From: an uncultured Clostridia bacterium
GTDB lineage: Bacteria > Bacillota > Clostridia > Oscillospirales > Acutalibacteraceae
NCBI GenBank assembly: GCA_937907605.1
Contig: CALCYI010000002.1
Location: 48,852-112,851, forward strand
Direction of reading: 5' to 3'
Length of the DNA: 64,000 nucleotides
A program made the position numbers and the translations under genes. The notes under the pieces are model-generated. The model did no database searches and was not told the DNA's origin. It worked only from the letters and a program-made list of their open reading frames with translations. Positions 30,826 to 57,434 of the stretch are shown here, in pieces. Within the stretch, counting starts at the first letter, position 1; every line of letters starts with the position of its first letter.

Positions 30826-31075
30826 TAATGTTTAATAATTATAATGCTTTGAATCAGTATAAGTAGGTATTGTTTCGCCCTTTAAGAGAGCGCGCGGGCG
30901 GTGAAAGCGCGCAGGAGTACAATGCTGAATTTCAGCTGAGGAGCACTCTGTGAGAAACTAAGCAGAGCGTATGTACTGCGTTAAAGTATATGAGCGACAG
31001 GGGCTTTATATTACCCCTGTAATTTGAGTGGTACCACGGAAATACTTCCGCCTCATAGTGAGGCGGTTTTTTATT
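30826..31075 (+). promoter_or_regulatory. T-box riboswitch leader (Phe specifier UUC) with terminator
   Basis: AGAGA and GGTGAAAG stem I elements; UUC followed by A at 30931-30934; T-box sequence AATTTGAGTGGTACCACGG (31021-31039); terminator CCGCCTC-ATAGT-GAGGCGG plus T-run (31048-31072). The 5' end is approximate. Confidence 0.85.
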
Positions 31076-42350: not shown

Positions 42351-42426
42351 GGGCCTGTAGCTCAGCTGGGAGAGTGCCGCGTTCGCAATGCGGAGGTCGA
42401 GGGTTCGAACCCCTTCAGGTCCACCA
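42351..42426 (+). tRNA. tRNA-Ala (anticodon CGC)
   Basis: Cloverleaf folded by hand: acceptor GGGCCTG/CAGGTCC with G3:U70, anticodon loop TTCGCAA, T-loop TTCGAAC, encoded CCA. Confidence 0.9.
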
Positions 42427-42642: not shown

Positions 42643-42718
42643 GGGGCATTAGCGCAGCTGGGAGCGCACCACACTGGCAGTGTGGGGGTCAGGGGTTCAA
42701 GTCCCCTATGCTCCACCA
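42643..42718 (+). tRNA. tRNA-Ala (anticodon GGC)
   Basis: Acceptor GGGGCAT/ATGCTCC with G3:U70, anticodon stem CCACA/TGTGG with loop CTGGCAG, T-loop TTCAAGT, encoded CCA. Confidence 0.9.
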
Positions 42719-42786: not shown

Positions 42787-43191
42787 ATGAAAATGCTGTC
42801 TGCAATACTTTCCTTTATCGGTGCGAATATTCTCTTTTTAATCCTGCACATCCAGAACTCCTCCTCTTTTCCGAAGCCGCTTTCCGCAAAGGAGGAAAAG
42901 GAATACCTGCTTAAAATGGCGGACGGGGATATGAACGCGCGGGCTGTGCTTATTGAGCGTAATCTTCGCCTTGTATCCCATATCGTGAAAAAATACTACT
43001 CCAAAACGAACGATACCGACGAGCTGATTTCAATCGGCACGATAGGACTTATCAAGGCGGTGGACTCCTTTGATATGAATAAGGGAATACACCTTGCAAC
43101 CTACGCTTCAAGGTGTATAGAAAATGCTATACTAACACAGCGGATACTTTTGACGGTGTTTTCACTCAGAATGTGTTCCATGTCCCGCTAA
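42787..43191 (+). pseudogene. sigK: sigK 5' portion (pro-sequence plus regions 1.2-2.4), interrupted by inserted DNA near 43126-43137
   Basis: MKMLSAILSFIGANILFLILHIQNSSSFPKPLSAKEEKEYL...LIERNLRLVSHIVKKY...LISIGTIGLIKAVDSF...LATYASRCIEN matches pro-sigma-K. After CIEN(AIL) the frame reads non-sigma sequence and stops at 43191. No regions 3-4 appear anywhere in the window. Confidence 0.75.
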
Positions 43192-43724
43192 TTGACGAAT
43201 GGAGCGTTTTATCCGCCGATAATCGACTCGCCTTGCTCCACAGGATACATTACGGTAAAATTGAGTATGGAGTTTTCTTTTCGTATCGTGTTTTCGTGAA
43301 CGATTTTAAGCAGTACTCCAAAAAATCGTATGAGCAGATTGACGGCAACACGCTGCACGGCAGGATTCGTAAAAGAAGAATTGACAAACAGATATATGTA
43401 GGCGATATACACAAATTACTCGGTGTCAGTTATTCGCAGTATATTAAAATAGAAAACGGCGAGTATCAGCTTCATCATATGGACAAGCTTATTAGGCTTT
43501 GCGAGATACTTAATATAGCGCCCGAAGAGATTTACACGCCTTACCAGATTTTCATTATGAACAACCAGGGCAAGCAGATAAAAGCGTATAGAAAAGCTAA
43601 TGGTTTAACGCAAACCGAATTAGCAGAACGTCTTTTCGTACATAGAAAGACCGTTTCAAAATGGGAAAATAACACCTGTCAAATGCCGTTTGAGAAATGG
43701 GAAAAAATCAACGGTGTTTGTTAA
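43113..43724 (+). CDS. XRE-family regulator with two HTH_3 domains (start codon uncertain)
   Basis: LHGRIRKRRIDKQIYVGDIHKLLGVSYSQYIKIENG and IKAYRKANGLTQTELAERLFVHRKTVSKWENN. The track start is a GTG inside the sigK fragment, and there is no internal ATG before the first HTH. Confidence 0.55.
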   Translation: MYRKCYTNTADTFDGVFTQNVFHVPLIDEWSVLSADNRLALLHRIHYGKIEYGVFFSYRVFVNDFKQYSKKSYEQIDGNTLHGRIRKRRIDKQIYVGDIHKLLGVSYSQYIKIENGEYQLHHMDKLIRLCEILNIAPEEIYTPYQIFIMNNQGKQIKAYRKANGLTQTELAERLFVHRKTVSKWENNTCQMPFEKWEKINGVC

Positions 43725-43769
43725 GAAAGAATACGCCGCAACGGATGATATTGATCCGCTGCGGCTTTT

Positions 43770-43934
43770 TTACAGTTCCTTTTTCAGTTCTTTGAGTATT
43801 TCCGTCTTTTCGGCATACGAAATCGGAAAGGAGTTTATCCTTTCAAGCATAGCCTTGCCGACGATATATCCGGCTTGCTTTTCAAATTCTTTCCATTGAT
43901 CTTCGCTTTTCGGCAGATAAACTATCGCTTTCAT
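43770..43934 (-). CDS. Small hypothetical protein (54 aa, below the ORF-track cutoff)
   Basis: Own translation: MKAIVYLPKSEDQWKEFEKQAGYIVGKAMLERINSFPISYAEKTEILKELKKEL. GGGGAGAG lies upstream, and a terminator hairpin (43741-43770) lies downstream. Confidence 0.3.
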   Translation of the reverse strand: MKAIVYLPKSEDQWKEFEKQAGYIVGKAMLERINSFPISYAEKTEILKELKKEL

Positions 43935-44061
43935 AATATACTCTCTCCCCTGCTGTTGAAAGTATATTCAAGGAACTGCTTGTCATAGAACTTAATTGCC
44001 ATAAGGCAACACTATTCCTTACTTGATTTTATATCAACCTCCTTAATTTATAATCTCTTTG

Positions 44062-44077
44062 CAGTTCGCACTGCGGG
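44062..44077. repeat. 16-nt repeat copy A: CAGTTCGCACTGCGGG (contains palindrome CGCA-C-TGCG)
   Basis: Matches 46128-46143 at 15 of 16 positions in the same orientation. It lies just 3' of the relaxase gene. Confidence 0.6.
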
Positions 44078-44134
44078 TTTAATAGTTTTCACAATACTTA
44101 CCTTTCTACCTGACTGTCGTCAGGATTTTTTCAT

Positions 44135-45667
44135 TTACATCGACTGACCGAAGCCTTCGTCTTCATCAAGGTCTTCGTCAGTGTCGTTACTGTTGTTCTG
44201 ATTTGTGTTTTGAAGTTGTTGCTGATAGCGTTGCTGCTGGATTGCACGGCGGAGGGAGAAGTCAATAATGCCTGTGCCGATGTTGAGAAGCGCTTCTGCG
44301 TTTTCGGCTGCCCTGCGGCTGTCTTCTTCATTCTTCTCCACCTTCGTGTATTCGCCGCCGACGGAACGCTCGCCGTGAGCAATGCGTTTCTGCTGCTCTT
44401 TGGTGAGCTCCTTGCTGTCCGTCTGCTGTCGCTTTTGCGCATTGATTTCGTTGATGCGGTCAGCTGCCTTGCTGTTGAACAGCGTGGCAATGGATTGCAG
44501 CAGGCTGTTGTAAATATTCGTGTTCTTGCCGATATTCTTCCAGCCGTTATCCGCTCCGAAGATCAGCGATTCCAGTACCGCTTTTATCAGCATATTTTTC
44601 AGCGATTTGAATTCCTTGTTCGCTTCAATCGGAATGTCAGGTGTTTTCTCGCTGTCGTGATAGAGCGCAAGTTTCAGGCGGTTAATCTCGTTCCACTTTG
44701 CGTACATATACTGAAGCGGCAGATTTTCATTTACGATATGCTTCAGCAAATTATCTACGGTGTTCTTGACGTTCTTGGGAAGATAACCGTAAATCTTTTT
44801 GCCTTTGCAAGCATTAAGCTCATTTTGCAGTTGCTTAATCAGTTCAGCAGTTTCATCCGTAATCGGAAATCGCCTGCAGGATATTCCTTCAAGCACTTCT
44901 TTCATCTCCGCTTTCAATTCGTCACGAACGCCCGTCTGCTCTCTGAATAATTTCAGTTGTTCGTTACGGAAAATATCGTTACCGAAGGTACTGCGCATCT
45001 TTTCCATTCCCTTTTTCGTAAGATAGCCCTGACCGGTTTTTGATAAGACTATCAGGTGAATATGCGGATGATGCGTCGTGTTATGAAACGCTGCATACCA
45101 TTCCATATCGCTCGGTTTAAGCTTATGCGCTTCGGCAAGCTCATTCATATTACGGCGCACACATTGTTTCCATGCATCTGCATTGTTGTAGCCAAGGCGT
45201 TCAGCGTCTTCACGGCGCAGGCTGACGACGTGCGTCCAGACGACTCCCTGATGATTTGAAACTTTTTCGGCAATGTCGTCAAGGTTAATCGCTTCGTCCG
45301 TTGCAGAAAACAGACCGTGCGAGCCGAGTTTTTCAACGCCCGGGCGCTCGGCAATATATGAAACAAGGCTCTTAAGTTCATCGGTACGGTCAGCGTCACG
45401 CTCGGCTACTGCGTCGATAAACTCATTGGCGTTAGCTTTGGACGGTTTTGAAATGAAATCGTCGAACTCAATATATTTTTTCGTATCGGGAAAGCATTTT
45501 GTAATTCTGTTTATCAGAGTGAATTGCTGCTGAGTAGCAATAGCGTTGTCAGTACCTTTCGGTAACTTTTCAACGCCCTCACGAGTACCCATATACTTTA
45601 CGAGTTTTCCTGCATTTTGAACGGACGGATTTTTAATGAACCTGCTTGATACAATTATCTTTGCCAT
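44135..45667 (-). CDS. Conjugative relaxase, MobL-like (HUH-type with HxH metal site)
   Basis: N-terminal MAKIIVSSRFIKN...LVKYMGTREGVEKL and HNTTHHPHIHLIV (histidine triad), followed by a coiled-coil, Gln-rich C-terminus. Confidence 0.65.
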   Translation of the reverse strand: MAKIIVSSRFIKNPSVQNAGKLVKYMGTREGVEKLPKGTDNAIATQQQFTLINRITKCFPDTKKYIEFDDFISKPSKANANEFIDAVAERDADRTDELKSLVSYIAERPGVEKLGSHGLFSATDEAINLDDIAEKVSNHQGVVWTHVVSLRREDAERLGYNNADAWKQCVRRNMNELAEAHKLKPSDMEWYAAFHNTTHHPHIHLIVLSKTGQGYLTKKGMEKMRSTFGNDIFRNEQLKLFREQTGVRDELKAEMKEVLEGISCRRFPITDETAELIKQLQNELNACKGKKIYGYLPKNVKNTVDNLLKHIVNENLPLQYMYAKWNEINRLKLALYHDSEKTPDIPIEANKEFKSLKNMLIKAVLESLIFGADNGWKNIGKNTNIYNSLLQSIATLFNSKAADRINEINAQKRQQTDSKELTKEQQKRIAHGERSVGGEYTKVEKNEEDSRRAAENAEALLNIGTGIIDFSLRRAIQQQRYQQQLQNTNQNNSNDTDEDLDEDEGFGQSM

Positions 45668-46071
45668 CAGTTGTCACCGCTCATAAGTTCGTCCGCTTCT
45701 TCCAGAGAAATATATCCGTTGGTCTGAGCAACTTCTTCATTGACAACCTTATTAAGTTCTTGCCAGTCCACGCCTGTATAATCATTAAACGCTGCGTTAA
45801 GACGGTTTAATTTTCCGATTTCAACCGCCATCTTGAAGAGCATTTCGCACATACCTTTTTCCGTATGACGAATTTCATTTTTGATTACTGAAGTTATCAT
45901 CGGCGAGAGATAATCTGCATTTTCATTTTGCAAAAGGTAGCCGATATAGAAATCAATCGCCGTGCGGACGAAGTCACTTCGGTTGACGCAGTTGGATAAA
46001 GGCAGCACTTTATCCATTTGTTTCACCTGACTAGGCAGCTGAAAGTACGCAAACTTTTTCATCGTTTCCAT
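45667..46071 (-). CDS. Relaxosome accessory protein (ribbon-helix-helix-like)
   Basis: RSDFVRTAIDFYIGYL RHH-like segment, and a stop/start overlap with the relaxase. Start moved to ATG 46071 (AGGAG 9 nt upstream). Confidence 0.5.
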   Translation of the reverse strand: METMKKFAYFQLPSQVKQMDKVLPLSNCVNRSDFVRTAIDFYIGYLLQNENADYLSPMITSVIKNEIRHTEKGMCEMLFKMAVEIGKLNRLNAAFNDYTGVDWQELNKVVNEEVAQTNGYISLEEADELMSGDN

Positions 46072-46127
46072 TGTAATCATCTCCTGAATTGTTAATTTGA
46101 GCATACCCCTGTAAAAAATTTCAAAAA

Positions 46128-46143
46128 CAGTCCGCACTGCGGG
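46128..46143. repeat. 16-nt repeat copy B: CAGTCCGCACTGCGGG (palindrome CCGCA-C-TGCGG); candidate oriT core
   Basis: Located about 60 nt upstream of the accessory and relaxase genes. Confidence 0.5.
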
Positions 46144-46151
46144 CTGATGTC

Positions 46152-46184
46152 AAAAGCGAGGCGTGGCGAGATACGCCTCGCTTT
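46152..46184 (-). terminator. Strong hairpin terminator
   Basis: AAAGCGAGGCGT-GGCGAGAT-ACGCCTCGCTTTT. Confidence 0.6.
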
Positions 46185-46295
46185 TACCTGCTTTCAATAA
46201 TTTCTTCGAAATATTGAAATAATCAATCAAGTTTCAGCGTCAATTTTCGTTTCAGAGGTATTTCTTATTATTTTTATTAAGTTTTTAAACCACCC

Positions 46296-46604
46296 CTACC
46301 AAATTTTATTGATAGTGTAGAGATTAGAGAGTCTGTTGCCGTTTGTGTAATCATATCGGTGCGTAATTGAAATCAAACCTTTATCCTCAAGCACCTTAAT
46401 CGCTTCATCAACCGTAGGCTCGGACATACAGCATTCTTTGGCGATAGTGCTTCTTGAAGGATAGCAGTTAAACTTTTTCATATCTGCACGGTGAAACAGA
46501 TAACAGTAAACGGCAAAGTCCCTCGCCTTCAGTTTTTCTTTATAGATACAATTCGGTACGATAAAGAAATTGCCTGAAGGGAATTTTTTGTTACTATGAA
46601 CCAT
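46296..46604 (-). CDS. Winged-helix DNA-binding protein (plasmid/ICE replication- or regulator-like)
   Basis: FFIVPNCIY...ARDFAVYCYLFHRADMKKFNCYPSRSTIAKECCMSEPTVDEAIKVLEDKGLI is typical of helix-turn-helix-domain proteins on Firmicute mobile elements. Confidence 0.55.
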   Translation of the reverse strand: MVHSNKKFPSGNFFIVPNCIYKEKLKARDFAVYCYLFHRADMKKFNCYPSRSTIAKECCMSEPTVDEAIKVLEDKGLISITHRYDYTNGNRLSNLYTINKIW

Positions 46605-46678
46605 AATTAAACTTTTCCTTTCGCAGTATTAAATACCGTGTCCTAAAAAGGGAAATAAAAGTGGACACAATATTCATA

Positions 46679-46707
46679 TTGCATTTTGAAAGGTTATGTG
46701 ATAAAAT
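46679..46707 (+). promoter_or_regulatory. SigA-type promoter of the polymerase-like gene
   Basis: TTGCAT, 17 nt spacer, TAAAAT with an extended TGn. Confidence 0.5.
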
Positions 46708-46722
46708 CTAATCGGTGATGAT

Positions 46723-49700
46723 ATGAATTCAAAGAAATATCGCATTTATGAGCTATCTGCAAGAGCCATAATTGCAAACTCAAAACTGAATTCCGAGGGG
46801 AGAACAATCTTCAATCTCAACTCTGCACAGACAGAAAAGTGCAGGGTTATTTCTGCTTCTCAAGAGCAGGAAAGCAACGCCCTGTTCTATCAGATTATGT
46901 GTGAGAAAAACGGAAACGGTTTTAGTGTTGGAGAGGAGAATGTTATCACCGAACTTGAAGATATAATCTTCTACTGCAACTTTGAAAACATATTTGACAG
47001 AGACGGCAGTTTAAAGAAATACGCTGACCTTCAGAGCAGAGCAAGAGATATGTTTCGTCCCGAAGGTATCACGCTTGACTTCGGCTCGAGTGCATTTCAA
47101 TTCGTTGCATTTGAACGTTCGGCAAGTATGAGCCGCAACGCAAAGCTATCTTTTATCCGCGCCGACTACTATGAGCCGATAAGGAAAAGAATAATGCTCG
47201 GTATGACAATCGATGATTGCCAGCTTTCAAAGCTTTACGCATATAACGGACTGCTGCTGTCCTCGGGAACGAGAATTGAAAACATAAATATTGAAAAGCC
47301 GCATCGGGTAATCGTAATTGATAATCAAAAATACACCGTTGATGCAACGAAAATTATTACAGTTGAAGACGACGGTACGAATGATTCCGTTCGTAAATAT
47401 ACAAGAAAAGAAACGAGAGGCGCAGTGGAGATAACAGGTTTTGACGGCGAAGGTCTTATCTCAAAAGAATACGCCGCCGTTATTGACAAAGCCTACTGCG
47501 GTGAACACTGTCATACCTCTTTTCAGATTCGTCTGCCGTATGTAAAAGGTATGTTGCACCAGGTTGATTTCAAAGACTTTCTTCACAGTGCAGGAACAAA
47601 GACGATAACGGACGTTTTCGGAACCGTTCACAAGGTTAAGGATGTGGATATTATTCTGACCAAAAGTATGTTCAAGGGCTACGGCTGGTTGCTTGATAAC
47701 GGTATGACGTGGGCTGACTACTGGAAGGCATTTTCTGAATACAATCACGCTTTGTATATCACGAACGTCAGCAAGGAACATCCCGAAGAATTTACGGAAC
47801 TGAACTATCAATTTCTGAATACGCTTTCGCTTACAAGAGATGAATTTCGTCCTGCCGATTTACCTGACGGTTGGACTTCTTCCCCTGCTGATAATGAGCG
47901 TAACTGGCTGACGAAGGAAACGGAAACTGCTTACTACAATCTCTGTGCTGATGAAGAATACCGTCTGAACTATTTTCTTAAATATCTGAAGAGACACAAC
48001 CGCAAAACGAAGAATTATCGATTAGCTACTATACTGAAAAGCAATCCGCTTTTTATCAACGAGCCCGTTTACACAAAAGAATTAGAGAACCATGCTGAAA
48101 ACATATTGAAAAAATATGCGCTTGGTAAGTTAATCGTTGCAGGCGATAACCGATTTCTTTCCGGTGATTTAATTGAGATTTTGAATTTGCTGCTTTCGCA
48201 CACCGGCAAAAAAGATAGCAGAGAGCGAAGGTTTTATTCAGTTGCCGTTTCCAATCGCTTTGCAAAGAATTCTTACTATGCGCCGCAGATTGCGTACAAA
48301 CACGGTGGCGAATGCACGCTTCTTCGTAATCCGCATATTGCAAGAAACGAGGAAATTCAGTTAGCCGTTTATCCGCAGGTAGAGCAGATGCGTAAGCATT
48401 ATCTCGGTCATCTTTCGGATATCGTTATCATTGACACACATATGCTCGCCGCAGAGCGACTCGGCGGAGCAGACTATGACGGCGATATGATTAAAACCAT
48501 ATCCGACCCGATTATCAATGCGGCGGTTAAGCGGAATTATGAACTTGACAGTCTTGACAATATGAACAACATTCCGCTTTTAAAAATCCCCGATGCCGAA
48601 CCGCTTATCCGTAATGCTGACGACTGGGAAGCGAGATTTGAAACGGTAAAGAGCACATTTTCTTCACGCGTCGGTCAGATATCAAATGCCGCGCTTGACC
48701 GAAGCATTATTGCTTACGATGAAAACTCCGATTCCGCTTTGCGTAAAAAGTGTCGTGAGGAAACGGAAACGCTCGCTATATTAACGGGTCTTGAAATTGA
48801 CTCTGCAAAAAGCGGAGTTAAGCCCGACCTTACCGAATATCTCGGCAGCGGAAGTATCTCACGCAGTATTTTCCTGACTCACAAAAATCTGGTTGAACAA
48901 TCTGAAACCCGTCGGGAATGGTATCAGGACACTCACCGAGACAAAATCAACAAATTCTTTTCTCAGACTGACTGGAACGCCGTCAGTTCAAACCTTGAAC
49001 TGCTCCCGTACTTTGCCCGTCAGCTGAAAAAACACACGCCGAAGATAAAGGCTCATCCTGCAAAGGACAGCGAGATGTTTGCTTTTGCGGTTAACGATAA
49101 CTGGAAAGATAATCTTGATGCGGATATTCTTTCTGCAGTCAGTGACTTAATTTTGGATTATGAGGCGGTACTCAACCGCATCCGCTTTTGCAAGGTTCCG
49201 ATTAAAAACAAGAACCGCAAAAGCGGTATTGACCGTATTCTTTATTCGAGAGGGCAAGAGAAAATATATAATTCTGATGAACTGTATGCGCTTTTCCAAC
49301 TACTTTCCCCTGAACGTATTTCTGCAATTCGAAATGCAATACGGGGTGAGCGTTGGCATCTGATGGGAGAAAAAGAAAGAGAAGATTTCCTGAACGGATA
49401 TCTTCCCGACGATGATTTTAAGGATTATTATTCTCTCCTTTGTGATTTTCGTTTCGGCGGTTACAAAGTGCTGTACGATTTGATTGCCGATATTGACGAC
49501 GAAAACGCCGCGCTTGATAACAAAAGGCTGATTCGTGATACAGATTCAGCGACATTTGCACAGATGATGCAGGCGTATATGGACAAGTCCGCCGCCGTTT
49601 CATACCGTGAAGCCGTATCTGTAAAATGCAGAGAGTTGCTTGACGGAATAGTTAAGCCAACCGTAGCCGTGCAGTACGTCGTTGCGCTCGGCAAACGGAA

Positions 49701-49758
49701 TCTTCTTTTTGATTTGCTGCTTGACAGCGTTGAAAAAACCGTTTTGAAAAAGGATTAA
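46723..49758 (+). CDS. Eukaryotic-type RdRP-like / two-barrel (double-psi beta-barrel) RNA polymerase homolog, 1011 aa
   Basis: Four ordered signature motifs: AFQFVAFERSASMSR (nt 47092-47136), FQIRLPYVKGM (47521-47553), LLRNPHIARNEE (RNPH at 48325-48336) and GGADYDGDMIKTISDP (DYDGD at 48472-48486). They parallel FLAFS.SQLR, FQIRygGyKGv, KNPcLHPGD and GGDLDGD of cellular RdRPs. Confidence 0.75.
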   Translation: MNSKKYRIYELSARAIIANSKLNSEGRTIFNLNSAQTEKCRVISASQEQESNALFYQIMCEKNGNGFSVGEENVITELEDIIFYCNFENIFDRDGSLKKYADLQSRARDMFRPEGITLDFGSSAFQFVAFERSASMSRNAKLSFIRADYYEPIRKRIMLGMTIDDCQLSKLYAYNGLLLSSGTRIENINIEKPHRVIVIDNQKYTVDATKIITVEDDGTNDSVRKYTRKETRGAVEITGFDGEGLISKEYAAVIDKAYCGEHCHTSFQIRLPYVKGMLHQVDFKDFLHSAGTKTITDVFGTVHKVKDVDIILTKSMFKGYGWLLDNGMTWADYWKAFSEYNHALYITNVSKEHPEEFTELNYQFLNTLSLTRDEFRPADLPDGWTSSPADNERNWLTKETETAYYNLCADEEYRLNYFLKYLKRHNRKTKNYRLATILKSNPLFINEPVYTKELENHAENILKKYALGKLIVAGDNRFLSGDLIEILNLLLSHTGKKDSRERRFYSVAVSNRFAKNSYYAPQIAYKHGGECTLLRNPHIARNEEIQLAVYPQVEQMRKHYLGHLSDIVIIDTHMLAAERLGGADYDGDMIKTISDPIINAAVKRNYELDSLDNMNNIPLLKIPDAEPLIRNADDWEARFETVKSTFSSRVGQISNAALDRSIIAYDENSDSALRKKCREETETLAILTGLEIDSAKSGVKPDLTEYLGSGSISRSIFLTHKNLVEQSETRREWYQDTHRDKINKFFSQTDWNAVSSNLELLPYFARQLKKHTPKIKAHPAKDSEMFAFAVNDNWKDNLDADILSAVSDLILDYEAVLNRIRFCKVPIKNKNRKSGIDRILYSRGQEKIYNSDELYALFQLLSPERISAIRNAIRGERWHLMGEKEREDFLNGYLPDDDFKDYYSLLCDFRFGGYKVLYDLIADIDDENAALDNKRLIRDTDSATFAQMMQAYMDKSAAVSYREAVSVKCRELLDGIVKPTVAVQYVVALGKRNLLFDLLLDSVEKTVLKKD

Positions 49759-49764
49759 CGTCAC

Positions 49765-49793
49765 TTGAAATTTTATTATTAATATGCTATAAT
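49765..49793 (+). promoter_or_regulatory. Near-consensus SigA promoter directly after the polymerase stop codon
   Basis: TTGAAA, 17 nt spacer, TATAAT with an extended TGc. Confidence 0.65.
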
Positions 49794-49795
49794 TG

Positions 49796-49990
49796 TGGCA
49801 GATTTAGAATTTAATTCTAATTTTGCCATATAATAATGGAGACGTTAGTGTGAAAAATCACACTAACCAATTATATTGCCCGCTCAGTTTGTCGCTACGC
49901 AACAACGAGCGATGGCTGTCATCACCATTAACGCCTGTTCAGGCAACACAGGATTTAGGTGATTTTTAATGAACTATTTGTTGCCTGAAA
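49796..49990 (+). other. Structured roughly 200-nt leader or small RNA
   Basis: Hairpins at 49796-49828 and 49844-49867 (9-bp perfect stem GTTAGTGTG/CACACTAAC). The local hairpin CCTGT/ACAGG (49934-49952) competes with a perfect 10-bp long-range pairing, TTCAGGCAAC (49938-49947) with GTTGCCTGAA (49980-49989), next to the ATPase RBS. Confidence 0.4.
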
Positions 49991-50006
49991 GGCTATGGTG
50001 ATTAAC

Positions 50007-51263
50007 ATGTATATTCCCCGTCATTTAGAAGAAAGGCTGTTAAAATCAAGCGAAACATATAAATCTGTTTTGGTAACAGGCGCAAGGCAGGTAGGTAAAT
50101 CTACACTGCTTAAACAAATATTTCCTGATAGGAAGTATGTTTCTCTTGACGACCCCTTTATAGAAGAACAAGCAAAAGAAAACGGAAGCATGTTTTTGAT
50201 GCTCAACCAACCTCCCGTTACGATTGACGAGGTACAAAGAGCACCCGAATTGTTTCGCTATATTAAAATCAAATGCGACGAAACAGATGATAAAGGACTG
50301 TTCTGCCTTTCAGGTTCACAGCAATTCAAATTAATGCAAAACGTTTCCGAAACGCTGTCTGGCAGAATTAATATAATTGAGCTTGCGGGATTATCGCTCA
50401 GAGAAATTCAGAGCGATTCTTTTAACAAACGATTTCTTCCCACTCTGGAATATATTACAGAAAGGCAGAAAACGGCAAAAGCCCCTGAAAACATCTGGGA
50501 AATTATTCACCGTGGCTCTTATCCCGCGTTACAGGACAAGAACCTCGACTGGGCGTCTTTTTATGCAGATTATGTTAAAACGTATATTGAAAGAGATGTA
50601 CGCGAACTGTCTGCCGTGCAGGACTTAGACGCTTTTCGCCGTTTTATGATTGCAACAGCAGCAAGAACGGGAGAGATTCTTAACTACAGCAGCATTGCAA
50701 GTGAAATCGGCAAAGACATCGGAACAGTTAAAAACTGGATTTCCATTCTTGAAGCCTCCGGCGTTATATATTTACTGGAACCCTACACGGCATCCGTTCT
50801 TAAACGCGCTATCAAATCGCCCAAGCTGTATTTCCGTGATACGGGACTGGCTTGTTACCTGACTCGCTGGCTGAGTGCAGAAGCGCTTGCATACGGTGCT
50901 ATGAGCGGTCATATTTTTGAGACCTTTGTTATATCAGAGCTCTTGAAATCTTTTTCAAATGCAGGACTTGATTACAGTTATTTTGTTTCCTATTATCGCG
51001 GAAGAGATAAAAAGAAAATAAAGCAGAACGGCGAAGAAATTGAACTGGAAAGCGAAATAGATTTTATCATTGAGGAAAACGGCGTTCTTTATCCAATTGA
51101 AATCAAGTCTGCTTCTAAGGTTACTGCAAGCGAAACGAGTGCGTTCACCGTGCTTGATAAAATAGAAAATAAAAAGCGTGGTGCGGGCGCTATTATTTGT
51201 ATGTGTCCTCAGCCCGGCAGTCTCAGGGAAAACGTGCTTCAGATTCCTGTTTGGTATATATAA
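50007..51263 (+). CDS. AAA-family ATPase of the AAA_14/DUF4143 type
   Basis: MYIPRHLE N-terminus and Walker A VTGARQVGKST, with a C-terminal restriction-endonuclease-like region typical of DUF4143. Start could also be 49995. Confidence 0.7.
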   Translation: MYIPRHLEERLLKSSETYKSVLVTGARQVGKSTLLKQIFPDRKYVSLDDPFIEEQAKENGSMFLMLNQPPVTIDEVQRAPELFRYIKIKCDETDDKGLFCLSGSQQFKLMQNVSETLSGRINIIELAGLSLREIQSDSFNKRFLPTLEYITERQKTAKAPENIWEIIHRGSYPALQDKNLDWASFYADYVKTYIERDVRELSAVQDLDAFRRFMIATAARTGEILNYSSIASEIGKDIGTVKNWISILEASGVIYLLEPYTASVLKRAIKSPKLYFRDTGLACYLTRWLSAEALAYGAMSGHIFETFVISELLKSFSNAGLDYSYFVSYYRGRDKKKIKQNGEEIELESEIDFIIEENGVLYPIEIKSASKVTASETSAFTVLDKIENKKRGAGAIICMCPQPGSLRENVLQIPVWYI

Positions 51264-51265
51264 TT

Positions 51266-52096
51266 ATGTTAAACGAAATTGAAGAATTCAAGGCATATAC
51301 CACGCCCGTTATCTATACGGCTGAAAGTAAAAGAGATACTTCTTATCTTGGCAGGTTTACCTTTGATGCCTTTATGGAATTCAGAGGACTCAGCCGTGTG
51401 CTGACGATTATTGCCCGAGGGTATATGTTTGAAACCGAAATGCCGGATACCGAGCGTGCAAGGCGTGCCTTGTGCGCCTGGTGCAGTATGCCTGAAATGA
51501 AAAAAGCCACTCCTAAAGAGGCGTGGCAGTTTACAACAGATTTCCGTTACCTTCACGGTGAGTTCCCCGAACTCGTTGATAACAATGGTAACGGGTGGTA
51601 CTTTCATCATATTAAAAATGTGTATAAATTTATTAAATGCTATCCAGACAAGGTAAGCAAGGTTGCCGTTAATAAAGCTGATTTGCTCGGCAGCAAGTAT
51701 GACAGAGAATGGCACAAAAAACTGTTGCAGTTTCAATATCCTATATTTACGCCACAGACAGAAAGCTGGGTAATGACTTTTGACAGTATCGTTGCAGATG
51801 CATTAGTGCTCGGTCCGCTGAAAGACAAGACAGTTAATCTTTCCGAAGAAACTCTGAAGAGAATTAACGAGTTTAATACAAGCGACGTGCCTGAAGAAAT
51901 TATCGTTCTTTTAGTACAATACTATCTTGCGAATAAGCCTGACGATTCAGACTGGGTGGTGCTACCGACGGCGAACTTTGATATGTATTTCGGCAACACC
52001 AATTTCAGCAAGAAGTGGCTGAAACAAATTCCCGACAGCATAATTATCCGCGACACTTTCAGTTTTGGCGTCGGAAGATACAAAGTCGTTATTTGA
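51266..52096 (+). CDS. Hypothetical protein (276 aa) coupled to the ATPase gene
   Basis: ATG lies 2 nt after the ATPase stop; no motif recognised. Confidence 0.5.
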   Translation: MLNEIEEFKAYTTPVIYTAESKRDTSYLGRFTFDAFMEFRGLSRVLTIIARGYMFETEMPDTERARRALCAWCSMPEMKKATPKEAWQFTTDFRYLHGEFPELVDNNGNGWYFHHIKNVYKFIKCYPDKVSKVAVNKADLLGSKYDREWHKKLLQFQYPIFTPQTESWVMTFDSIVADALVLGPLKDKTVNLSEETLKRINEFNTSDVPEEIIVLLVQYYLANKPDDSDWVVLPTANFDMYFGNTNFSKKWLKQIPDSIIIRDTFSFGVGRYKVVI

Positions 52097-52167
52097 AGAG
52101 GGGTTTGTTATTATTTCTCTAAAGATTTTATCCCAGGCGTTATAAAAGATTTTTATTTAGAAATATT

Positions 52168-52218: not shown

Positions 52219-52881
52219 TTATTTGTTTTTCAGATATTCAGCTGAAACGGGAAAATCAAAATAGGTGTCAGGAAAAGGCTCATCCTTTAAGGTAAAATGC
52301 CACCATTCGCAGTCTATTGGTTCAAAGCCGTTTCGCACCATAATTTTTTGCAGGAACATACGGTTTTCGTACTGCTCGTCGGTAACGCCCTTGTAATCGG
52401 GATGCGAAACCTCGCTGAAAAAGTCAAACGGACTGCCCATATCAATTTCCTTGCCCGTTGCCATATCAAGCAGCGTTAAATCAACGGTGCTGCCTCTGCT
52501 ATGGCTTGACTGACTTGCGATATAGCCAAGCTCAAATAGCGCCGTTTTTTCAAGGTCGGGATAGAAAAAGGGTTTCGTTCTTAAATCCAAATCCTCAATA
52601 CCCCAAAGCACAAAATGCTTGACTGCTCTTGCAGGTCTGTACGCGTCAAATATTTTTAGTCGGTAACCTGCAACGTTTGCCTCGTTCGCAACAGCTTTCA
52701 GCGCTCTTGCCGCGTCTTTCGTGATAATCGCACAGGGCTCTTCATAACCGTCAACTCTGTCGCCGACAAAGTTATAGGTTGAAAAATAGCGGATTTCCTG
52801 CACGATGGAGGGAACGTAATCCGAAAGTAATACAAAGCGCGAGCAATCAAGCTCTGCTTCTCTTTTAAAATCAGTAGCCAT
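52219..52881 (-). CDS. D-alanyl-D-alanine dipeptidase (VanX/DdpX, M15D)
   Basis: SHSRGSTVDL (SxHxxGxAxD) and CEWWHF motifs. Confidence 0.8.
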   Translation of the reverse strand: MATDFKREAELDCSRFVLLSDYVPSIVQEIRYFSTYNFVGDRVDGYEEPCAIITKDAARALKAVANEANVAGYRLKIFDAYRPARAVKHFVLWGIEDLDLRTKPFFYPDLEKTALFELGYIASQSSHSRGSTVDLTLLDMATGKEIDMGSPFDFFSEVSHPDYKGVTDEQYENRMFLQKIMVRNGFEPIDCEWWHFTLKDEPFPDTYFDFPVSAEYLKNK

Positions 52882-52885
52882 AACG

Positions 52886-53689
52886 TTATTCCTTACTCAT
52901 AAATTGTAACAGGCGCTCTTTATAATCGGGAGCAGTATCAAAAGCGGCGTGACCGTAGCCGTTATACAGATAACTTTCAAAATCTTGATTATCCGAAAAC
53001 AAAATTTCAAGCTCTTCAGCAGCACCGGGCAGCACCTTATCGTCCGCTGCGCCGAGTGATAAAACGGGACATTTAATGTTGCGGAGTTCCTTTGATATAT
53101 CAAAATCTTTTGTGCCTTCGGCAAAAAGAATGAAACGTTCGAGTTCAGAGTCGGTAATGCTTTCGCCCGTCTTTTTCAGCACCTCTTTATACTGCTCAAA
53201 AAGAGCCTCGGGATAAAGGACCCTGCCCATTTCAAGGCTGAGATTAATTCCGTCTTTTTTCTTTGCCAGAGCAGTCCACTTTGATATTGCGTTAAACTGC
53301 TTTTCGGTAATACGTGCCGAAGAGGAGCCGAGCATCAGCTTTTTGACATGTTCGGAATAACGGGCAGCAATCGTCATAGCAATCATTCCGCCCTGCGACG
53401 CACCGAAAAGATAAATGTCCTTCAGTCCGAGAGTGCAAAATATCTTTGCCGTATTCTCAGCCATATCGTAAACGGAATACTGCTGCGGAAGCTCGTTTCT
53501 TCGGTCAAACACATAAGCAGTGAATTCCTCTGCGATAACGGCATAAGCCTTTTCAATCATATCCGCAGCGCCCATCACGCTCTGAACGCTCATCCCCGGA
53601 AGGATAATGAAAGTCTTTTCGCCCTTTCCGAAGGTAAAATAGTTCATAGTGAAATTATCGGCGCATGCCGTTTTAATCGAAATACTCAT
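52886..53689 (-). CDS. Alpha/beta hydrolase
   Basis: GASQGG nucleophile elbow (GxSxG); 267 aa. Confidence 0.65.
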   Translation of the reverse strand: MSISIKTACADNFTMNYFTFGKGEKTFIILPGMSVQSVMGAADMIEKAYAVIAEEFTAYVFDRRNELPQQYSVYDMAENTAKIFCTLGLKDIYLFGASQGGMIAMTIAARYSEHVKKLMLGSSSARITEKQFNAISKWTALAKKKDGINLSLEMGRVLYPEALFEQYKEVLKKTGESITDSELERFILFAEGTKDFDISKELRNIKCPVLSLGAADDKVLPGAAEELEILFSDNQDFESYLYNGYGHAAFDTAPDYKERLLQFMSKE

Positions 53690-53694
53690 ATTAA

Positions 53695-54831
53695 TCAGAA
53701 ATAAAGTTTATCTATTTTAGGCACGTTTTCGATTAAATAATCCTTGCAAAACGCAACAACTTGATCTCCAAAGCGCAAAGCGTCGTTGTGCCTTGATATC
53801 CATCTGAGCAGGCGCGCATAACAGATAGTTTCAACCATTCTTATGATGCTGTCAACCTTTTCCTGCTCCTCACCTTCAAAATAGTACTTAACCGTGTATT
53901 TCCAGAAATCTTCGCACTGCTCACGCTTAATTCCAAGAAAATTTGCGCTGTTTTCTTTATCAACGCAGCTGAATCCGACGTATGCTGCAAAGATAGCAGC
54001 GAATTCAAAAACGGGATGTCCCATAGAAAGCGTATCCATATCAATCAGCAGGTTTTCGCCGTTTTGCTGCATGATATTTTTGATATGATAATCGCCGTGG
54101 AGCATATTATTCGTTTCAGGAATATCCTTAAAAAGCGAGAGCAACTTTTCGCCGATTTCCTCGGGAAGATGAGGCTTAACATATTCAGCCCAGCCGATTG
54201 CCTCTTCACTTTTGCTCGGAAGTTCGCCGTCCTTTAGCATAGTTGAATGAATCGTTTTAAGAATGTCTACGCTCTCCTTTGCAAGTTCGTCAATGTCGCC
54301 GCCTTCGGCAATAAGTTTTGAAAAGGACTTGGCATTAAGCAGCTCGAAAACCGAGCCGTATAAATCACCAACCTGAACAACGTCGTAAGGAATAGCCGTT
54401 GGAATTCCCATAACAAAGGCTTTTCTTGCAAGCTCGCGCTCATTATGTATTTCGTCAAGCGAATCGGGGTTTTTATAAACCTTAACGATAGTGTCGGGGT
54501 CCGTACGGTAAACGATACCGTTTGCACCCTCTCCGATAACCTCGCATCCTTCAACGGAAAGCTTTCTGTACGCCTTTGAAATATCCATCATTTCCGTAAA
54601 GCCCGTCATATCAAAGATTTCATAAACCTCTGAATTACAGTTTACTACCTTTGTTTCGGCGTTTGCTTTTTTCAGGCGTAGAATAACGCGAAGTCCTGCG
54701 CTTGAAATATATTCAAGCCCGCTTGCATCAAGAATAAGCTCGCCGCTATAATCGCCTATCTGTTCATTGATTTTTGCTTCTGTTTCTGCCGCATTTGAAG
54801 AATCAATTCGTCCTGTTAAATTAATAGTCAT
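53695..54831 (-). CDS. STAS domain fused to an APH/choline-kinase-like phosphotransferase domain
   Basis: N-terminal LEYISSAGLRVILRL (SpoIIAA-like phospho-serine motif) and a C-terminal Brenner-type HGDYHIKNIM...LIDMD kinase motif. Confidence 0.6.
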   Translation of the reverse strand: MTINLTGRIDSSNAAETEAKINEQIGDYSGELILDASGLEYISSAGLRVILRLKKANAETKVVNCNSEVYEIFDMTGFTEMMDISKAYRKLSVEGCEVIGEGANGIVYRTDPDTIVKVYKNPDSLDEIHNERELARKAFVMGIPTAIPYDVVQVGDLYGSVFELLNAKSFSKLIAEGGDIDELAKESVDILKTIHSTMLKDGELPSKSEEAIGWAEYVKPHLPEEIGEKLLSLFKDIPETNNMLHGDYHIKNIMQQNGENLLIDMDTLSMGHPVFEFAAIFAAYVGFSCVDKENSANFLGIKREQCEDFWKYTVKYYFEGEEQEKVDSIIRMVETICYARLLRWISRHNDALRFGDQVVAFCKDYLIENVPKIDKLYF

Positions 54832-54835
54832 TAGT

Positions 54836-55399
54836 TTAGTCCTCCCCGTTGAAAACGTGAGTTACGAGCTTTTCATATTCCTTATATGCAGGATAGTCTG
54901 AAAGTTCTCTGATATATTCAAGTATCGTTGAATGATACCAGTATTGCTCTTTTGGATTCTTTTCGTTAAAACGGTCAAACACCGCTGCGCCGATTTTGTC
55001 AAAATCTCTTGCAAGTGAGCGCATATTGGAGAGCTTATCGCCGAGCCAAAGCATTTTGGTTTCAATGCCCGCGTCTTTCAACACGGCAAGGCTTTCTTCC
55101 TTGCGGATTTTCCACGACTGACTAGGCGGCATATCGGGACGTTTATCCTCCGTTTCGTGCGCTACGAGTTCTGCGACTCTTGGTCCGAAATTATCAAGAA
55201 TATCCTGCGCAGTAACAGGCGTATCCTCCACCGTATCGTGAAGCACGGCGGCAGCAAGAATCTCTAAGTCATTTGTCATCGTGCCGACAATCGTTGCATC
55301 CTCAAGCGGATGAAGAATATACACGCCGCCGTCCTTTCTCGTCTGTCCCTCGTGCGCTTTAAGCGCAAAGGCAACGGCTTTATCAAAAACATTGCTCAT
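54836..55399 (-). CDS. HD-domain protein, SpoT/Mesh1-like (p)ppGpp hydrolase type
   Basis: HPLEDATIV...AAVLHDTVEDT signature; 187 aa, with no synthetase domain. Confidence 0.65.
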   Translation of the reverse strand: MSNVFDKAVAFALKAHEGQTRKDGGVYILHPLEDATIVGTMTNDLEILAAAVLHDTVEDTPVTAQDILDNFGPRVAELVAHETEDKRPDMPPSQSWKIRKEESLAVLKDAGIETKMLWLGDKLSNMRSLARDFDKIGAAVFDRFNEKNPKEQYWYHSTILEYIRELSDYPAYKEYEKLVTHVFNGED

Positions 55400-55412
55400 A
55401 AAACTGTTTCCT

Positions 55413-57434
55413 TTATATTTTCTTTGTCATAGTCAGAATATTATAGCCGTCCTTGTATTCATACGAAACGGAGTCCATATTCTTTTTGGTAAGGTATATA
55501 CCGAGCCCGCCGACTTCTCTTTCATCTGCTGAAAGTGAAATATCAGGGTCTTCCTTTTCAAGCGGATTATACGGAACGCCGCTATCCTTGAACGTTATAG
55601 TGATTTCGCCGTCGCTGCAATCCGCAGATATTTCCGCCTTGCCTACGCCGTCGCCGTAAGCATAATTTGCAATATTGACATAGATTTCCTCAACGGATAA
55701 GTCAATTTGCATTTGGGCTTTCATTGATGCGCCGTTTTCTTCCAAAACGCCGTCAACAAAATCCATTACCGTATGCAGGTTTTCCGTTGTGGCGTCTACG
55801 GTCAGCGTATTTCCCTCATTGCCTTTCAGTTCAAGACAGAGCATGGTTAAATCGTCAAACTGCGCTGCGTCACCGACGAACTCACTCACACACTCATTAA
55901 CGCCGTCCAGAATATCCTGTGGTTTTTCATCTTTATACTTATTCAGCGCCTCAATCATACCGTTTAAGGTGAACATTTTTTCGTCCTTATCGGTAGCCTC
56001 CGGCAGACCGTCGGTATAAAGGAAAATTTTATCACCCTTATTCAGTTGAATTTCAAAGTCCTTGTATTTTATGCCTGACATTGCGCCTACGACAAGACCG
56101 TGCTTATTCTTAACAATTTCAAACTGACCGCCCTTGCGATAAACTGCGGGGTCGTCGTGACCTGCGTTTGCAGCGAGGATTTTGCCCGTTGAAATTTCAA
56201 GAATACCGAGCCATACCGTTACGAACATATCCGCCTGATTATGGTCGCATATACTGTCATTAACAAAGGTGAGAATTTCGGCAGGAGTGCCGCCCATATG
56301 CGTTCTGTCGCTGATAAGAATATTCGTTACCATCATAAACAGCGCTGCGGGAATACCTTTGCCTGAAACGTCCGCCATTACCATAGCGAGATGGTCATCG
56401 TCAACAAGGAAGAAATTATAGAAATCGCCGCCGACCTCCTTTGCAGGAGTCATTGAAGCGTAAACGTCAAAATCCTTTCTTTGCGGGAAGGCGGGGAAAA
56501 TATTTGGAACTGAATTTTCCTGAATGGTTTTGGCAATATTCAGTTCTGCGCCGATACGCTCCTTTTCGGAGGTTACGGCAGTCAGATTATCAATGTATGC
56601 CAGCATATCGTCCTCCATTTTATCAATGGAACGGGCAAGCGTTGAAATTTCTTCAATTTTGCTGACGTTGCCAAGCTCGTCGCCCTTTTTGTTTTCCAAA
56701 GCGAAACGGCTTGTTTCACTGCTGACGCGCTTCATCGGATTTACAAATTCCTTGCGAATATAAAAGGCTGAAGTTAAAGCAACCATCACGGAAAGAATAA
56801 CCGTTGAAATGGCAATATTTATTAAATACGGACGTCTGGCATCTCTCAGCTCCTCCATGGGTCTTTGAATGCACATCAAGCTGACAACCTCGCCCTGCGA
56901 ATTTTTAAGAGGTGCTAATGTTGTGATATGCGGCGGCGCACCGTTTAGTTTAGTCGTTCTGTAAACTGTGCCGTAAGCGAGGTCGTTTTCATATATATCA
57001 CGATAGATTTCAACATATTCCTCGTTCGTGGTGTCCTGTTGATAACCAATTTTCCAAGGCGTGTATGGCGTATCCTCTCCGACGGAATTGAACACAGACG
57101 TAAACCTGCCGTAATCAGTGGTATCGACCTTGATGACGTACACAATAGAAACATCCATTTTCTCGCAGAAGGCGTCAAGATACTGCTTTGTCTGCTGATA
57201 TTCCTCCGACTGCCCGCCGTCTGCAAGATAGTCATCAATATGGTCGCCGTTTACAAGTAAGGCAGCAGTATCAGCCATACTTGCGGTCGTATTACTGTAT
57301 TCTCTTTTAAAAGCGTTTGTAAAGCTGACATAGCCTATAACGCTCACAATCCAGCTGAACACTAAAAGCAGCAACACTACGGCGCTTATAATATTAAACG
57401 CTAAGCTACTGCGTAATTTTTGTATCTTTTTCAT
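55413..57434 (-). CDS. Membrane sensor: extracytoplasmic domain-HAMP-PP2C (SpoIIE-type) phosphatase fused to an RsbW/SpoIIAB-like HATPase
   Basis: Two TM segments, PP2C motifs (EVGGDFYNF, MADVSGKGIPAALFM, TDGLPEA) and a C-terminal GGLGIYL ATP-lid motif. Confidence 0.7.
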   Translation of the reverse strand: MKKIQKLRSSLAFNIISAVVLLLLVFSWIVSVIGYVSFTNAFKREYSNTTASMADTAALLVNGDHIDDYLADGGQSEEYQQTKQYLDAFCEKMDVSIVYVIKVDTTDYGRFTSVFNSVGEDTPYTPWKIGYQQDTTNEEYVEIYRDIYENDLAYGTVYRTTKLNGAPPHITTLAPLKNSQGEVVSLMCIQRPMEELRDARRPYLINIAISTVILSVMVALTSAFYIRKEFVNPMKRVSSETSRFALENKKGDELGNVSKIEEISTLARSIDKMEDDMLAYIDNLTAVTSEKERIGAELNIAKTIQENSVPNIFPAFPQRKDFDVYASMTPAKEVGGDFYNFFLVDDDHLAMVMADVSGKGIPAALFMMVTNILISDRTHMGGTPAEILTFVNDSICDHNQADMFVTVWLGILEISTGKILAANAGHDDPAVYRKGGQFEIVKNKHGLVVGAMSGIKYKDFEIQLNKGDKIFLYTDGLPEATDKDEKMFTLNGMIEALNKYKDEKPQDILDGVNECVSEFVGDAAQFDDLTMLCLELKGNEGNTLTVDATTENLHTVMDFVDGVLEENGASMKAQMQIDLSVEEIYVNIANYAYGDGVGKAEISADCSDGEITITFKDSGVPYNPLEKEDPDISLSADEREVGGLGIYLTKKNMDSVSYEYKDGYNILTMTKKI

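Follow-up and report, generated by a model that had tools for sequence, protein, structure and literature searches.

What might a polymerase with the motifs of eukaryotic RNA-dependent RNA polymerases (RdRPs) be doing on a 9-kb mobilizable element of an uncultured clostridium? The question is raised by a locus within 64,000 nucleotides (nt) of contig CALCYI010000002.1 of assembly GCA_937907605.1, from an uncultured Clostridia bacterium of the Acutalibacteraceae; this entire stretch is referred to below as the window. The gene in question lies at 46723..49758 on the plus strand and encodes a YonO-like, two-barrel, single-subunit RNA polymerase of 1011 amino acids (aa) that belongs to the RdRP family PF05183. 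The locus was compared with 82 related polymerase-bearing loci, labelled L001 onward, and this comparison shows that the gene is one of the three parts of a cassette, consisting of a 22-nt box, the polymerase and a partner gene that we call orf276, and that the cassette occupies a fixed slot in small integrative mobilizable elements of the Oscillospirales.

The identity of the polymerase may be considered first. Its open reading frame (ORF) is complete, with 1011 codons from ATG to stop. An earlier note on this DNA had assigned the protein to the cellular RdRP/QDE-1 family on the basis of four motifs, and each of these was found at exactly the residues stated: AFQFVAFERSASMSR at aa 124-138, TSFQIRLPYVKGML at 265-278, LLRNPHIARNEE at 533-544 and GGADYDGDMIKTISDP at 581-596. 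A fifth diagnostic motif that the note did not mention, GFDGEGLIS (aa 239-247), corresponds to DGxGxIS and bears the fourth catalytic aspartate, D241. The Pfam profile PF05183 matched aa 104-712 significantly (E=5.3e-17, 62.2 bits, gathering cutoff 23.8), and for this sequence the match and the motifs together are far beyond chance. As a criterion of family membership we used the eight residues that are invariant in every two-barrel RNA polymerase, which in QDE-1 are D709, R738, K743, R962, P964, D1007, D1009 and D1011 (Ruprich-Robert and Thuriaux, PMC2919709). All eight are kept in the window protein, as D241, R270, K275, R535, P537, D584, D586 and D588, and they are invariant across an alignment of 49 full-length homologs with 23-72% identity (alignment A1), so that the aspartates of the DYDGD loop (D584, D586 and D588) are conserved in every homolog aligned. 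The invariant columns of A1 include D241-G242-x-G244, Q268, R270, P272, K275, G276, R535, P537, H538 and G582-x-D584-x-D586-G587-D588. The polymerase found no match in NCBIfam or in a search of the PDB with the single sequence, and a scan of the longer homologs (1289-1482 aa) for domain fusions revealed no additional Pfam domain.

A structural comparison gave the same answer. A confident AlphaFold2 model derived from A1 (predicted local distance difference test score, pLDDT, 89.7; predicted template modelling score, pTM, 0.85) was searched with Foldseek against the PDB and yielded 21 significant matches, all of them to RDR2 or QDE-1, with a probability of 1.0 and template modelling (TM) scores of 0.36-0.45. 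The best was maize RDR2 (7w82, E=9.6e-15), followed by 5fsw, 2j7n and 7y7t at about 1e-13, the range extending to 1e-11; besides maize RDR2, the structures matched were those of Thielavia and Neurospora QDE-1 (about 1e-13) and Arabidopsis RDR2. With the A1 profile as a query, QDE-1 alone was matched by sequence in the PDB, with LgGADFDGD aligned to LSGGDYDGD, and the DYDGD loop of the window protein is the same as that of QDE-1 (GGDYDGD). The bacterial enzyme therefore shares with Neurospora QDE-1 and with Arabidopsis and maize RDR2 the PF05183 profile, the fold and five motifs (among them DGxGxIS, FQIRxxxxKG, RxPxxH and DYDGD), and differs from them in its bacterial host, in a sequence identity of 12-16% and in the low global TM scores given above. 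The earlier note had also proposed comparisons with YonO, the polymerase of the Bacillus prophage SPbeta, and with the multisubunit RNA polymerases. The first of these was borne out, since hhalign aligned aa 105-703 with YonO 124-635 (99.8%, E=6.4e-29) and tblastn detected YonO with E=2e-7, and by sequence the polymerase is an unambiguous YonO homolog. The second was not, since fold matches to the multisubunit large subunits had E>0.1; these beta and beta' subunits and the virion RNA polymerase gp66 of crAss-like phages belong to the same double-psi beta-barrel superfamily, and gp66 is absent from the 21 significant matches. YonO itself scores nothing on PF05183, whereas the polymerase (62 bits) and a homolog from a Thomasclavelia phage do score, which places this clade between YonO and the eukaryotic enzymes. 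Profile, structure and conservation all agree, and they show the protein to be a bacterial member of the YonO/cellular-RdRP family, predicted to be a catalytically intact two-barrel single-subunit RNA polymerase with an intact DxDGD loop.

This placement makes it necessary to consider that the enzyme might be a genuine RdRP that copies or amplifies an RNA encoded by the element, either as an RNAi-like (RNA interference) amplifier or as part of an RNA replicon. Its profile score and its fold are indeed nearer to those of the eukaryotic RdRPs than are those of YonO, its top structural matches are RDR2 and QDE-1, and it has the catalytic loop of the latter. However, no Argonaute, Dicer-like or RNA-processing gene is linked to the polymerase in the 82 loci, a further difference from QDE-1 and RDR2, and an Rfam scan of the element detected no RNA family. 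In addition YonO, the sole bacterial relative to have been assayed, is a strict DNA-dependent RNA polymerase with a strong preference for DNA templates (Forrest et al. 2017, PMC5467207). We regard a genuine RdRP as very unlikely. Even among the eukaryotic enzymes, QDE-1 itself also uses single-stranded DNA as a template. Because YonO is DNA-dependent and QDE-1 accepts single-stranded DNA, a DNA template is to be expected here too, and the polymerase would copy DNA into RNA as those two enzymes do. That it is DNA-templated and works for its element, by priming or by transcription, is a reading towards which we lean, if only slightly.

The resemblance to YonO is close at the level of the enzyme. 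The catalytic core is homologous throughout, the same aspartate triad and the same set of arginine, lysine and proline residues are present, and both proteins are single chains of about 100 kDa encoded on mobile elements of Firmicutes. They differ in that the window protein has an extra helical C-terminal region of about 300 aa, and the two contexts differ as well: YonO resides on a 134-kb phage and the polymerase on a 9-kb mobilizable element that has no late or structural genes. A YonO-type enzyme is one that is encoded in a phage or prophage and needed for late genes. No phage structural genes accompany the polymerase, and the 82 loci are mobilizable-element backbones; judged by context, it is not a YonO-type phage RNA polymerase.

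The relatives of this polymerase are numerous, and not few as the earlier note had supposed. An exhaustive HMMER search of 1.84 billion representatives of 50%-identity clusters returned at least 1,422 clusters at E<=1e-3, of which 461 reach E<=1e-30. A word-indexed search found at least 1,931 matches, one of them named 'RNA dependent RNA polymerase' by NCBI, and a pattern scan in which each GTDB species was represented by one genome detected at least 576 encoded relatives, the best 80 of which are all Oscillospirales (Oscillospiraceae, Ruminococcaceae, Acutalibacteraceae, Flavonifractor and Lawsonibacter among them). Relatives at 21-28% identity (tblastn) are also present on 84 phage records and 20 plasmids. 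The polymerase matches PHROG 8308 with E=3.6e-58, and the RdRPs annotated in clostridial and Bacillus phages and phage-plasmids (PHROG 8308 and 4291; Thomasclavelia TR-TP1/2, Enterocloster phages, C. botulinum phage c-st) belong to the same family at that same level of identity, differing in that they are phage genes. About 50 'YonO-like' proteins had already been counted in Firmicute chromosomes in 2010, including one from 'Bacteroides capillosus' (PMC2919709), and the 2017 YonO paper repeats this count and speculates that such proteins might transcribe special gene sets (PMC5467207). The polymerase itself is a new member of an already catalogued family. What is new here is its 8,978-bp mobilizable vehicle, the orf276 partner and the 22-nt box, and we found nothing in the literature tying these polymerases to conjugative or mobilizable elements, to a primase function, to a partner protein or to a conserved box. 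'Bacteroides capillosus' is, we take it, the organism since reclassified as Pseudoflavonifractor.

Several observations on individual family members may be recorded here. Two diverged polymerase-bearing elements occur together in several genomes (L028/L029 on one contig, 36 kb apart; L066/L069, 84 kb apart; L059/L079 in one genome). In L011, L026, L071 and L073 the polymerase match is split over two adjacent ORFs, so that about 5% of copies are apparently interrupted. The best 'phage' match is L084 (GenBank MT835651, 'Bacteriophage sp.', 23 kb), a record without annotation. On it are genes for a polymerase of 1158 aa, for an orf276 homolog and for a transposase of the Mutator family, and it may represent a mobile element and not a phage. 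A relative on a C. perfringens linear plasmid has a helicase as its neighbour, a context that is uninformative; an apparent literature link to C. perfringens plasmid replication proved to be spurious and was due to the author name 'Yonogi'.

The second part of the cassette, orf276 (51266..52096, plus strand, 276 aa), came from the survey of homolog neighbourhoods that the earlier note had recommended. Across the 82 loci this gene adjoins the polymerase in 81, immediately 3' of it and often overlapping its stop codon, and the single exception is due to a contig end. The gene has 1,024 database homologs, all 'hypothetical' and without Pfam domains, and searches of Pfam, PHROGs, PADLOC-DB 2.0 and PDB profiles gave no match. 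An AlphaFold2 model built from the database homologs is mostly helical and is of good quality (pLDDT 91.1, pTM 0.89); Foldseek found no significant neighbour for it in the PDB or in BFVD, and the weak matches that it did return are solely to winged-helix/helix-turn-helix (HTH) domains, on the C-terminal 80 or so residues. The N-terminal portion of about 75 residues, which begins with an invariant MLNExxEFxxY, is more informative. It recurs directly downstream of polymerases that are just 27-37% identical to the window copy, with hhalign probabilities of 95.8% for MT835651, 96.5% for the P0148 locus and 91.7% for the P0165 locus. Since this domain has stayed beside such distant polymerases, the coupling must be old, and it points to a physical partnership of the two predicted proteins. 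YonO has neither this obligate partner nor the box (yonP and yonN are unrelated), and in YonO and in phage TR-TP1 no orf276 equivalent was detectable. The gene that follows the TR-TP1 polymerase (gp3) was tried as a distant homolog of orf276 or of the polymerase, as were DUF6076 and the DUF6076 partner, to which we return below, and none showed a detectable relation.

In the window the polymerase and orf276 are separated by an insertion of 1.5 kb (49759..51260, plus strand) that bears an AAA_14/DUF4143 ATPase gene (49995-51263, plus strand; Pfam), which matches the PADLOC candidate defence family PDC-S01 with E=3.8e-97. Because orf276 directly follows the polymerase in L003 and L004, which have nucleotide identities of 88% and 81%, this segment must have been inserted exactly between the two genes. 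Related elements carry members of this ATPase family at other positions: 3' of orf276 in L050 and L051, and next to MobL in L136 and L154.

The third part of the cassette, the 22-nt box, has the consensus GTGGGAGCAGTATTCATATTGC. The window copy, GTGGACACAATATTCATATTGC, lies at 46661..46682 on the plus strand, 62 nt before the ATG, and has four mismatches. The box is nearly invariant in upstream regions that otherwise do not align. With a box counted when it had at most 5 mismatches to the consensus, 76 of 80 polymerase loci scanned possess one on the plus strand, mostly 66-70 nt before the ATG; a single box is present in 68 of the 80 and two in 8, the second being about 300 nt further upstream. 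Such a second box is seen in Ruminococcus-type loci (L022, L035, L037, L043, L046, L058 and L062), and in L022, L037, L043, L058 and L062 a small ORF was called immediately 5' of the polymerase (cluster c32). Two further sets of loci served for comparison. None of 10 DUF6076 loci lacking the polymerase contains the box, and in 80 MobL-centred metagenome loci it is present in the sole one that bears the polymerase (L091) and in none of the other 79, save for a borderline case with 5 mismatches in L096. An imperfect inverted repeat (46632..46674, plus strand), the 3' arm of which is the start of the box, is weak in the window copy and strong in many relatives: folded as DNA, the hairpin has -4 kcal/mol and a z-score of -0.2 in the window, compared with -10.7 to -11.9 kcal/mol and z-scores of -4.4 to -5.4 in relatives. 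The arms co-vary between clades, and the 5' arm is missing in some. Since the hairpin is weak or missing in the window and in some clades, the linear box is the primary signal. By eye, a putative host-type promoter overlaps the box and extends beyond it (46679..46707, plus strand), with TTGCAT, a spacing of 17 nt and an extended -10 element TGaTAAAAT, followed by a strong ribosome-binding site; TGnTAnAAT is conserved in relatives, and a simple consensus scan of 46550-46800 for promoters and terminators called nothing.

The box and the partner gene together suggest one possible function. The polymerase and orf276 might form a dedicated transcriptase with a sigma-like subunit, for which the box is the promoter and by which the element's genes are transcribed without the host RNA polymerase. 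The precedent would be YonO, the sole characterised bacterial homolog, which is processive and transcribes a single phage late operon from one start site, and for which no specificity factor is known (PMC5467207). The fixed distance of the box upstream of the polymerase operon and the weakly winged-helix-like C-terminus of orf276 would be in keeping with such a role. On the other hand, there is usually only one box per element, and it precedes the operon of the polymerase itself; most genes 3' of orf276 are encoded on the other strand, which would leave the enzyme to transcribe mainly its own gene; the element, with eight genes in 9 kb, has no late operon; and a putative host-type extended -10 sequence is already present downstream of the box. 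We consider a dedicated transcriptase of this kind doubtful.

The setting of the cassette provides further information. Clustering of the genes in the 82 loci revealed two unrelated backbones, in which the slot of the cassette is the same. Type A comprises one or two tyrosine integrases, MobL, a 134-aa protein, an HTH_36 protein, a 124-aa protein and an HTH_17 excisionase. Type B comprises a large serine recombinase, a MobA/VirD2 relaxase, a MobC/NikA protein and either an AAA_25/DnaB_C-like ATPase or a 578-aa protein that has a P-loop-like GKTGTRKS motif and no Pfam match. In both, the cassette is always divergent from the relaxase/replication-type operon, on the side of HTH_36 or of the AAA_25/DnaB_C-like ATPase, with a DUF6809 gene and variable cargo usually coming after it. 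Some relatives carry other genes at this position. In L165-L174 and L087, which represent both backbone types, the same divergent slot holds cysteine-rich DUF6076 proteins of 312-503 aa, sometimes with a 316-aa protein bearing a faint HTH signal. DUF6076 may be a functional analogue of the polymerase cassette; we found no relative of it in the PDB and no literature on it. In L149 (2235-6445) a fusion of SIR2-APAZ and prokaryotic Argonaute (pAgo; PADLOC pAgo, E=0) is encoded with a 353-aa gene directly upstream of the module of HTH_36, the 134-aa protein and MobL, an arrangement that implies that these mobilizable elements ferry short-pAgo defence systems.

These observations raise the alternative that the cassette is itself cargo for defence or counter-defence, a two-gene system making antisense, double-stranded or decoy RNA against phages, competing elements or the defences of the host after transfer. 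The content of the slot varies from one related element to another, the cassette is transferred whole between backbones that are unrelated, and defence genes cluster nearby, with the PDC-S01 candidate inside the operon of the window and the SIR2-pAgo gene by MobL in L149. Eight loci have in addition a 1043-aa neighbour that reads like the R subunit of a type I restriction enzyme, a putative assignment, and the eukaryotic cellular RdRPs act in RNA-silencing defence. Against this, neither protein matches the PADLOC models: orf276 gave no match, as noted above, and the best for the polymerase, PDC-S15, had E=0.01 over 90 aa and is no real match. Further, the position and orientation of the cassette are fixed beside replication and mobilization genes, clear cargo lies past orf276, and the box is conserved more than the proteins, which would be unusual for the promoter of a cargo gene. 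A defence function is thus conceivable, and we would not expect it to be the answer.

We are more inclined, though still tentatively, to a primase-like role in establishment of the element, by analogy with RepB' of RSF1010 or PrmN1 of NBU1. According to this proposal, orf276 would bind the polymerase through its conserved N-terminal 75 or so residues and supply site specificity, and on the DNA of the element itself the pair would synthesise a starter RNA at a site specific to that element. This RNA would then serve as a primer, either for synthesis of the complementary strand or for replication, on the single strand that has been excised or transferred by conjugation. In RSF1010 and NBU1 the primase genes abut RepA/DnaB-like or initiator-like genes. 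The primase-like role is suggested by the absence of any recognisable primase among the element genes that were profiled and by the position of the cassette, which likewise abuts RepA/DnaB-like or initiator-like genes. Since there is usually one box per element, a single initiation site fits better than a promoter regulon, and within an element of 9 kb there is no group of genes for which a private transcriptase would be required. An enzyme of 1011 aa takes up one third of such an element, which argues for a core function. The comparison with RepB' (which acts with the RepA helicase), PrmN1 and Sog of ColIb is one of functional analogy. The likeness lies in a polymerase gene beside a relaxase and an AAA_25 helicase or initiator-like HTH gene in a small mobilizable element; the difference is that those primases have Toprim or archaeo-eukaryotic primase (AEP) folds and make short primers, whereas the enzyme here is predicted to be a two-barrel RNA polymerase.

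Several considerations weigh against a primase-like role. The cassette is not obligatory for the backbones, being present in 1 of the 80 MobL-centred loci, and in relatives without it the slot holds DUF6076 or a 673-aa protein, with SIR2-pAgo nearby once, so that the slot might be a site for cargo. A plain promoter or operator would also be consistent with the box, given its fixed spacing from the start codon and its overlap with the putative -35 sequence. The winged-helix assignment of orf276 is weakly indicated, by fold matches short of significance, the DNA template would hold for this clade by analogy with YonO and QDE-1, and the replication of these elements is itself putative. On a bolder reading, the cassette might be a self-contained RNA-synthesis system of a new kind for a mobile element, either a two-barrel replication primase of transferred DNA or a true bacterial RdRP by which RNA would be amplified for interference. 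We would call this bolder reading improbable.

We turn now to the particular element in the window, which spans 43123..52099 (8,978 bp, without an integrase) and ends 3 bp past the stop codon of orf276. It is 95.6% identical in DNA to 6404-15377 of L001, from another metagenome-assembled genome, in which the polymerase copy is 97% identical as a protein. Because the identity stops abruptly and the flanks are unrelated on both sides, the element must be a discrete mobile unit. Its right end is common to L003 and L004, and its guanine-plus-cytosine content of 0.42 may be compared with 0.47 and 0.44 in the flanks. Beginning at the left end, it encodes an XRE-type double-HTH regulator of 183 aa (43173..43724, plus strand), followed by a 54-aa ORF on the minus strand and, also on the minus strand, a MobL-family relaxase of 510 aa (44135..45667; PF18555, E=2.4e-30). 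Next to the relaxase is a small protein without a family assignment (45667..46137, minus strand), which is 134-155 aa long, is always upstream of MobL and is likely to be a relaxosome accessory. The last gene before the polymerase, and divergent from it, specifies a winged-helix HTH_36 protein of 102 aa (46296..46604, minus strand; Pfam) that resembles the N-terminal DNA-binding domain of phage and plasmid initiators and matches PHROG families of 'replication initiation protein' with E of 1e-15.

The eight genes of 43123-52099 include no phage genes, no type IV secretion system genes and no integrase. The description of the element in the earlier note as mobilizable and free of phage genes is upheld by the MobL relaxase, with the reservation that this copy lacks an integrase of its own. 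Like an integrative mobilizable element, it has a relaxase without a type IV secretion system and is a discrete unit found at different chromosomal sites; the recombinase that such an element would possess is missing, and relatives carry tyrosine integrases or large serine recombinases. The element is mobilizable and not autonomous, and it resembles a cis-mobilizable derivative.

This deficiency suggests that the polymerase could be a decaying, non-functional relic on a crippled element. The 1.5-kb insertion that splits polymerase from orf276, the degenerate hairpin of the window copy and the interrupted polymerases in about 5% of relatives might be read in the same way. However, the ORF is of full length and retains all its catalytic residues, orf276 is intact, and a 97%-identical copy with the same architecture resides at a different site in another genome, so that the element has moved recently. 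Of the explanations considered, we give decay the least credence.

The insertion site merits comment. The left end of the element truncates a pro-sigma-K-like gene, the N-terminal half of which (42787..43122, plus strand; Sigma70_r2) breaks off after ...ATYASRCIEN. The earlier note had described the element as interrupting sigK, and this is correct insofar as the N-terminal half ends exactly at that boundary, at 43122. The C-terminal half was found nowhere in the 64-kb window, with a query that does find an intact sigma gene in L066, so any intervening DNA must exceed 21 kb. Nor is there a SpoIVCA-type large serine recombinase such as that of a skin-like element, since no Resolvase or Recombinase domain occurs among the element's proteins. 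Either the sigK gene is broken, or the insertion is composite and exceeds 21 kb, in which case the element may be one part of it. Fragments of orf276-like genes lie just downstream of intact elements in L001 (15599-15829) and L053 (7063-7395 and 8758-9015), which suggests that related elements have accumulated in tandem at a single site and have then decayed.

The surroundings of the element in the window contain some further features. The truncated sigma gene is closely preceded by two tRNA-Ala genes (42351-42426 and 42643-42718, anticodons CGC and GGC). The right flank (52219-57434, minus strand) encodes a VanX-like D-Ala-D-Ala dipeptidase, an alpha/beta hydrolase, a STAS-APH protein, an HD-domain protein and a fusion of SpoIIE phosphatase with HATPase; it may be either chromosomal or a portion of some larger insertion. 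A T-box leader is present at 30840-31058 (Rfam RF00230, 133 bits), upstream of an ORF starting at 31028.

The role of the 'enigmatic' chromosomal YonO-like proteins has been an open question since 2003-2010, and it can now be posed for a defined and testable system of two proteins plus a box. The vehicle of this system is a class of small mobilizable elements that is abundant in the Oscillospirales of gut and rumen. Among the carriers are cultivable organisms (Acutalibacter, Ruminococcus flavefaciens, Flavonifractor and Lawsonibacter), and DUF6076 is available for comparison as an alternative occupant of the same slot. The cassette also bears on the manner in which minimal two-barrel polymerases find their start sites. 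As these bacterial enzymes are nearer to the eukaryotic RdRPs than is YonO, their choice of template and their partner have implications for the origin of the RNAi polymerases; were the reading as a bacterial RdRP to prove true, it would mean that the eukaryotic RNAi polymerases descend from an ancestor that resided in bacterial mobile elements, together with a dedicated specificity subunit.

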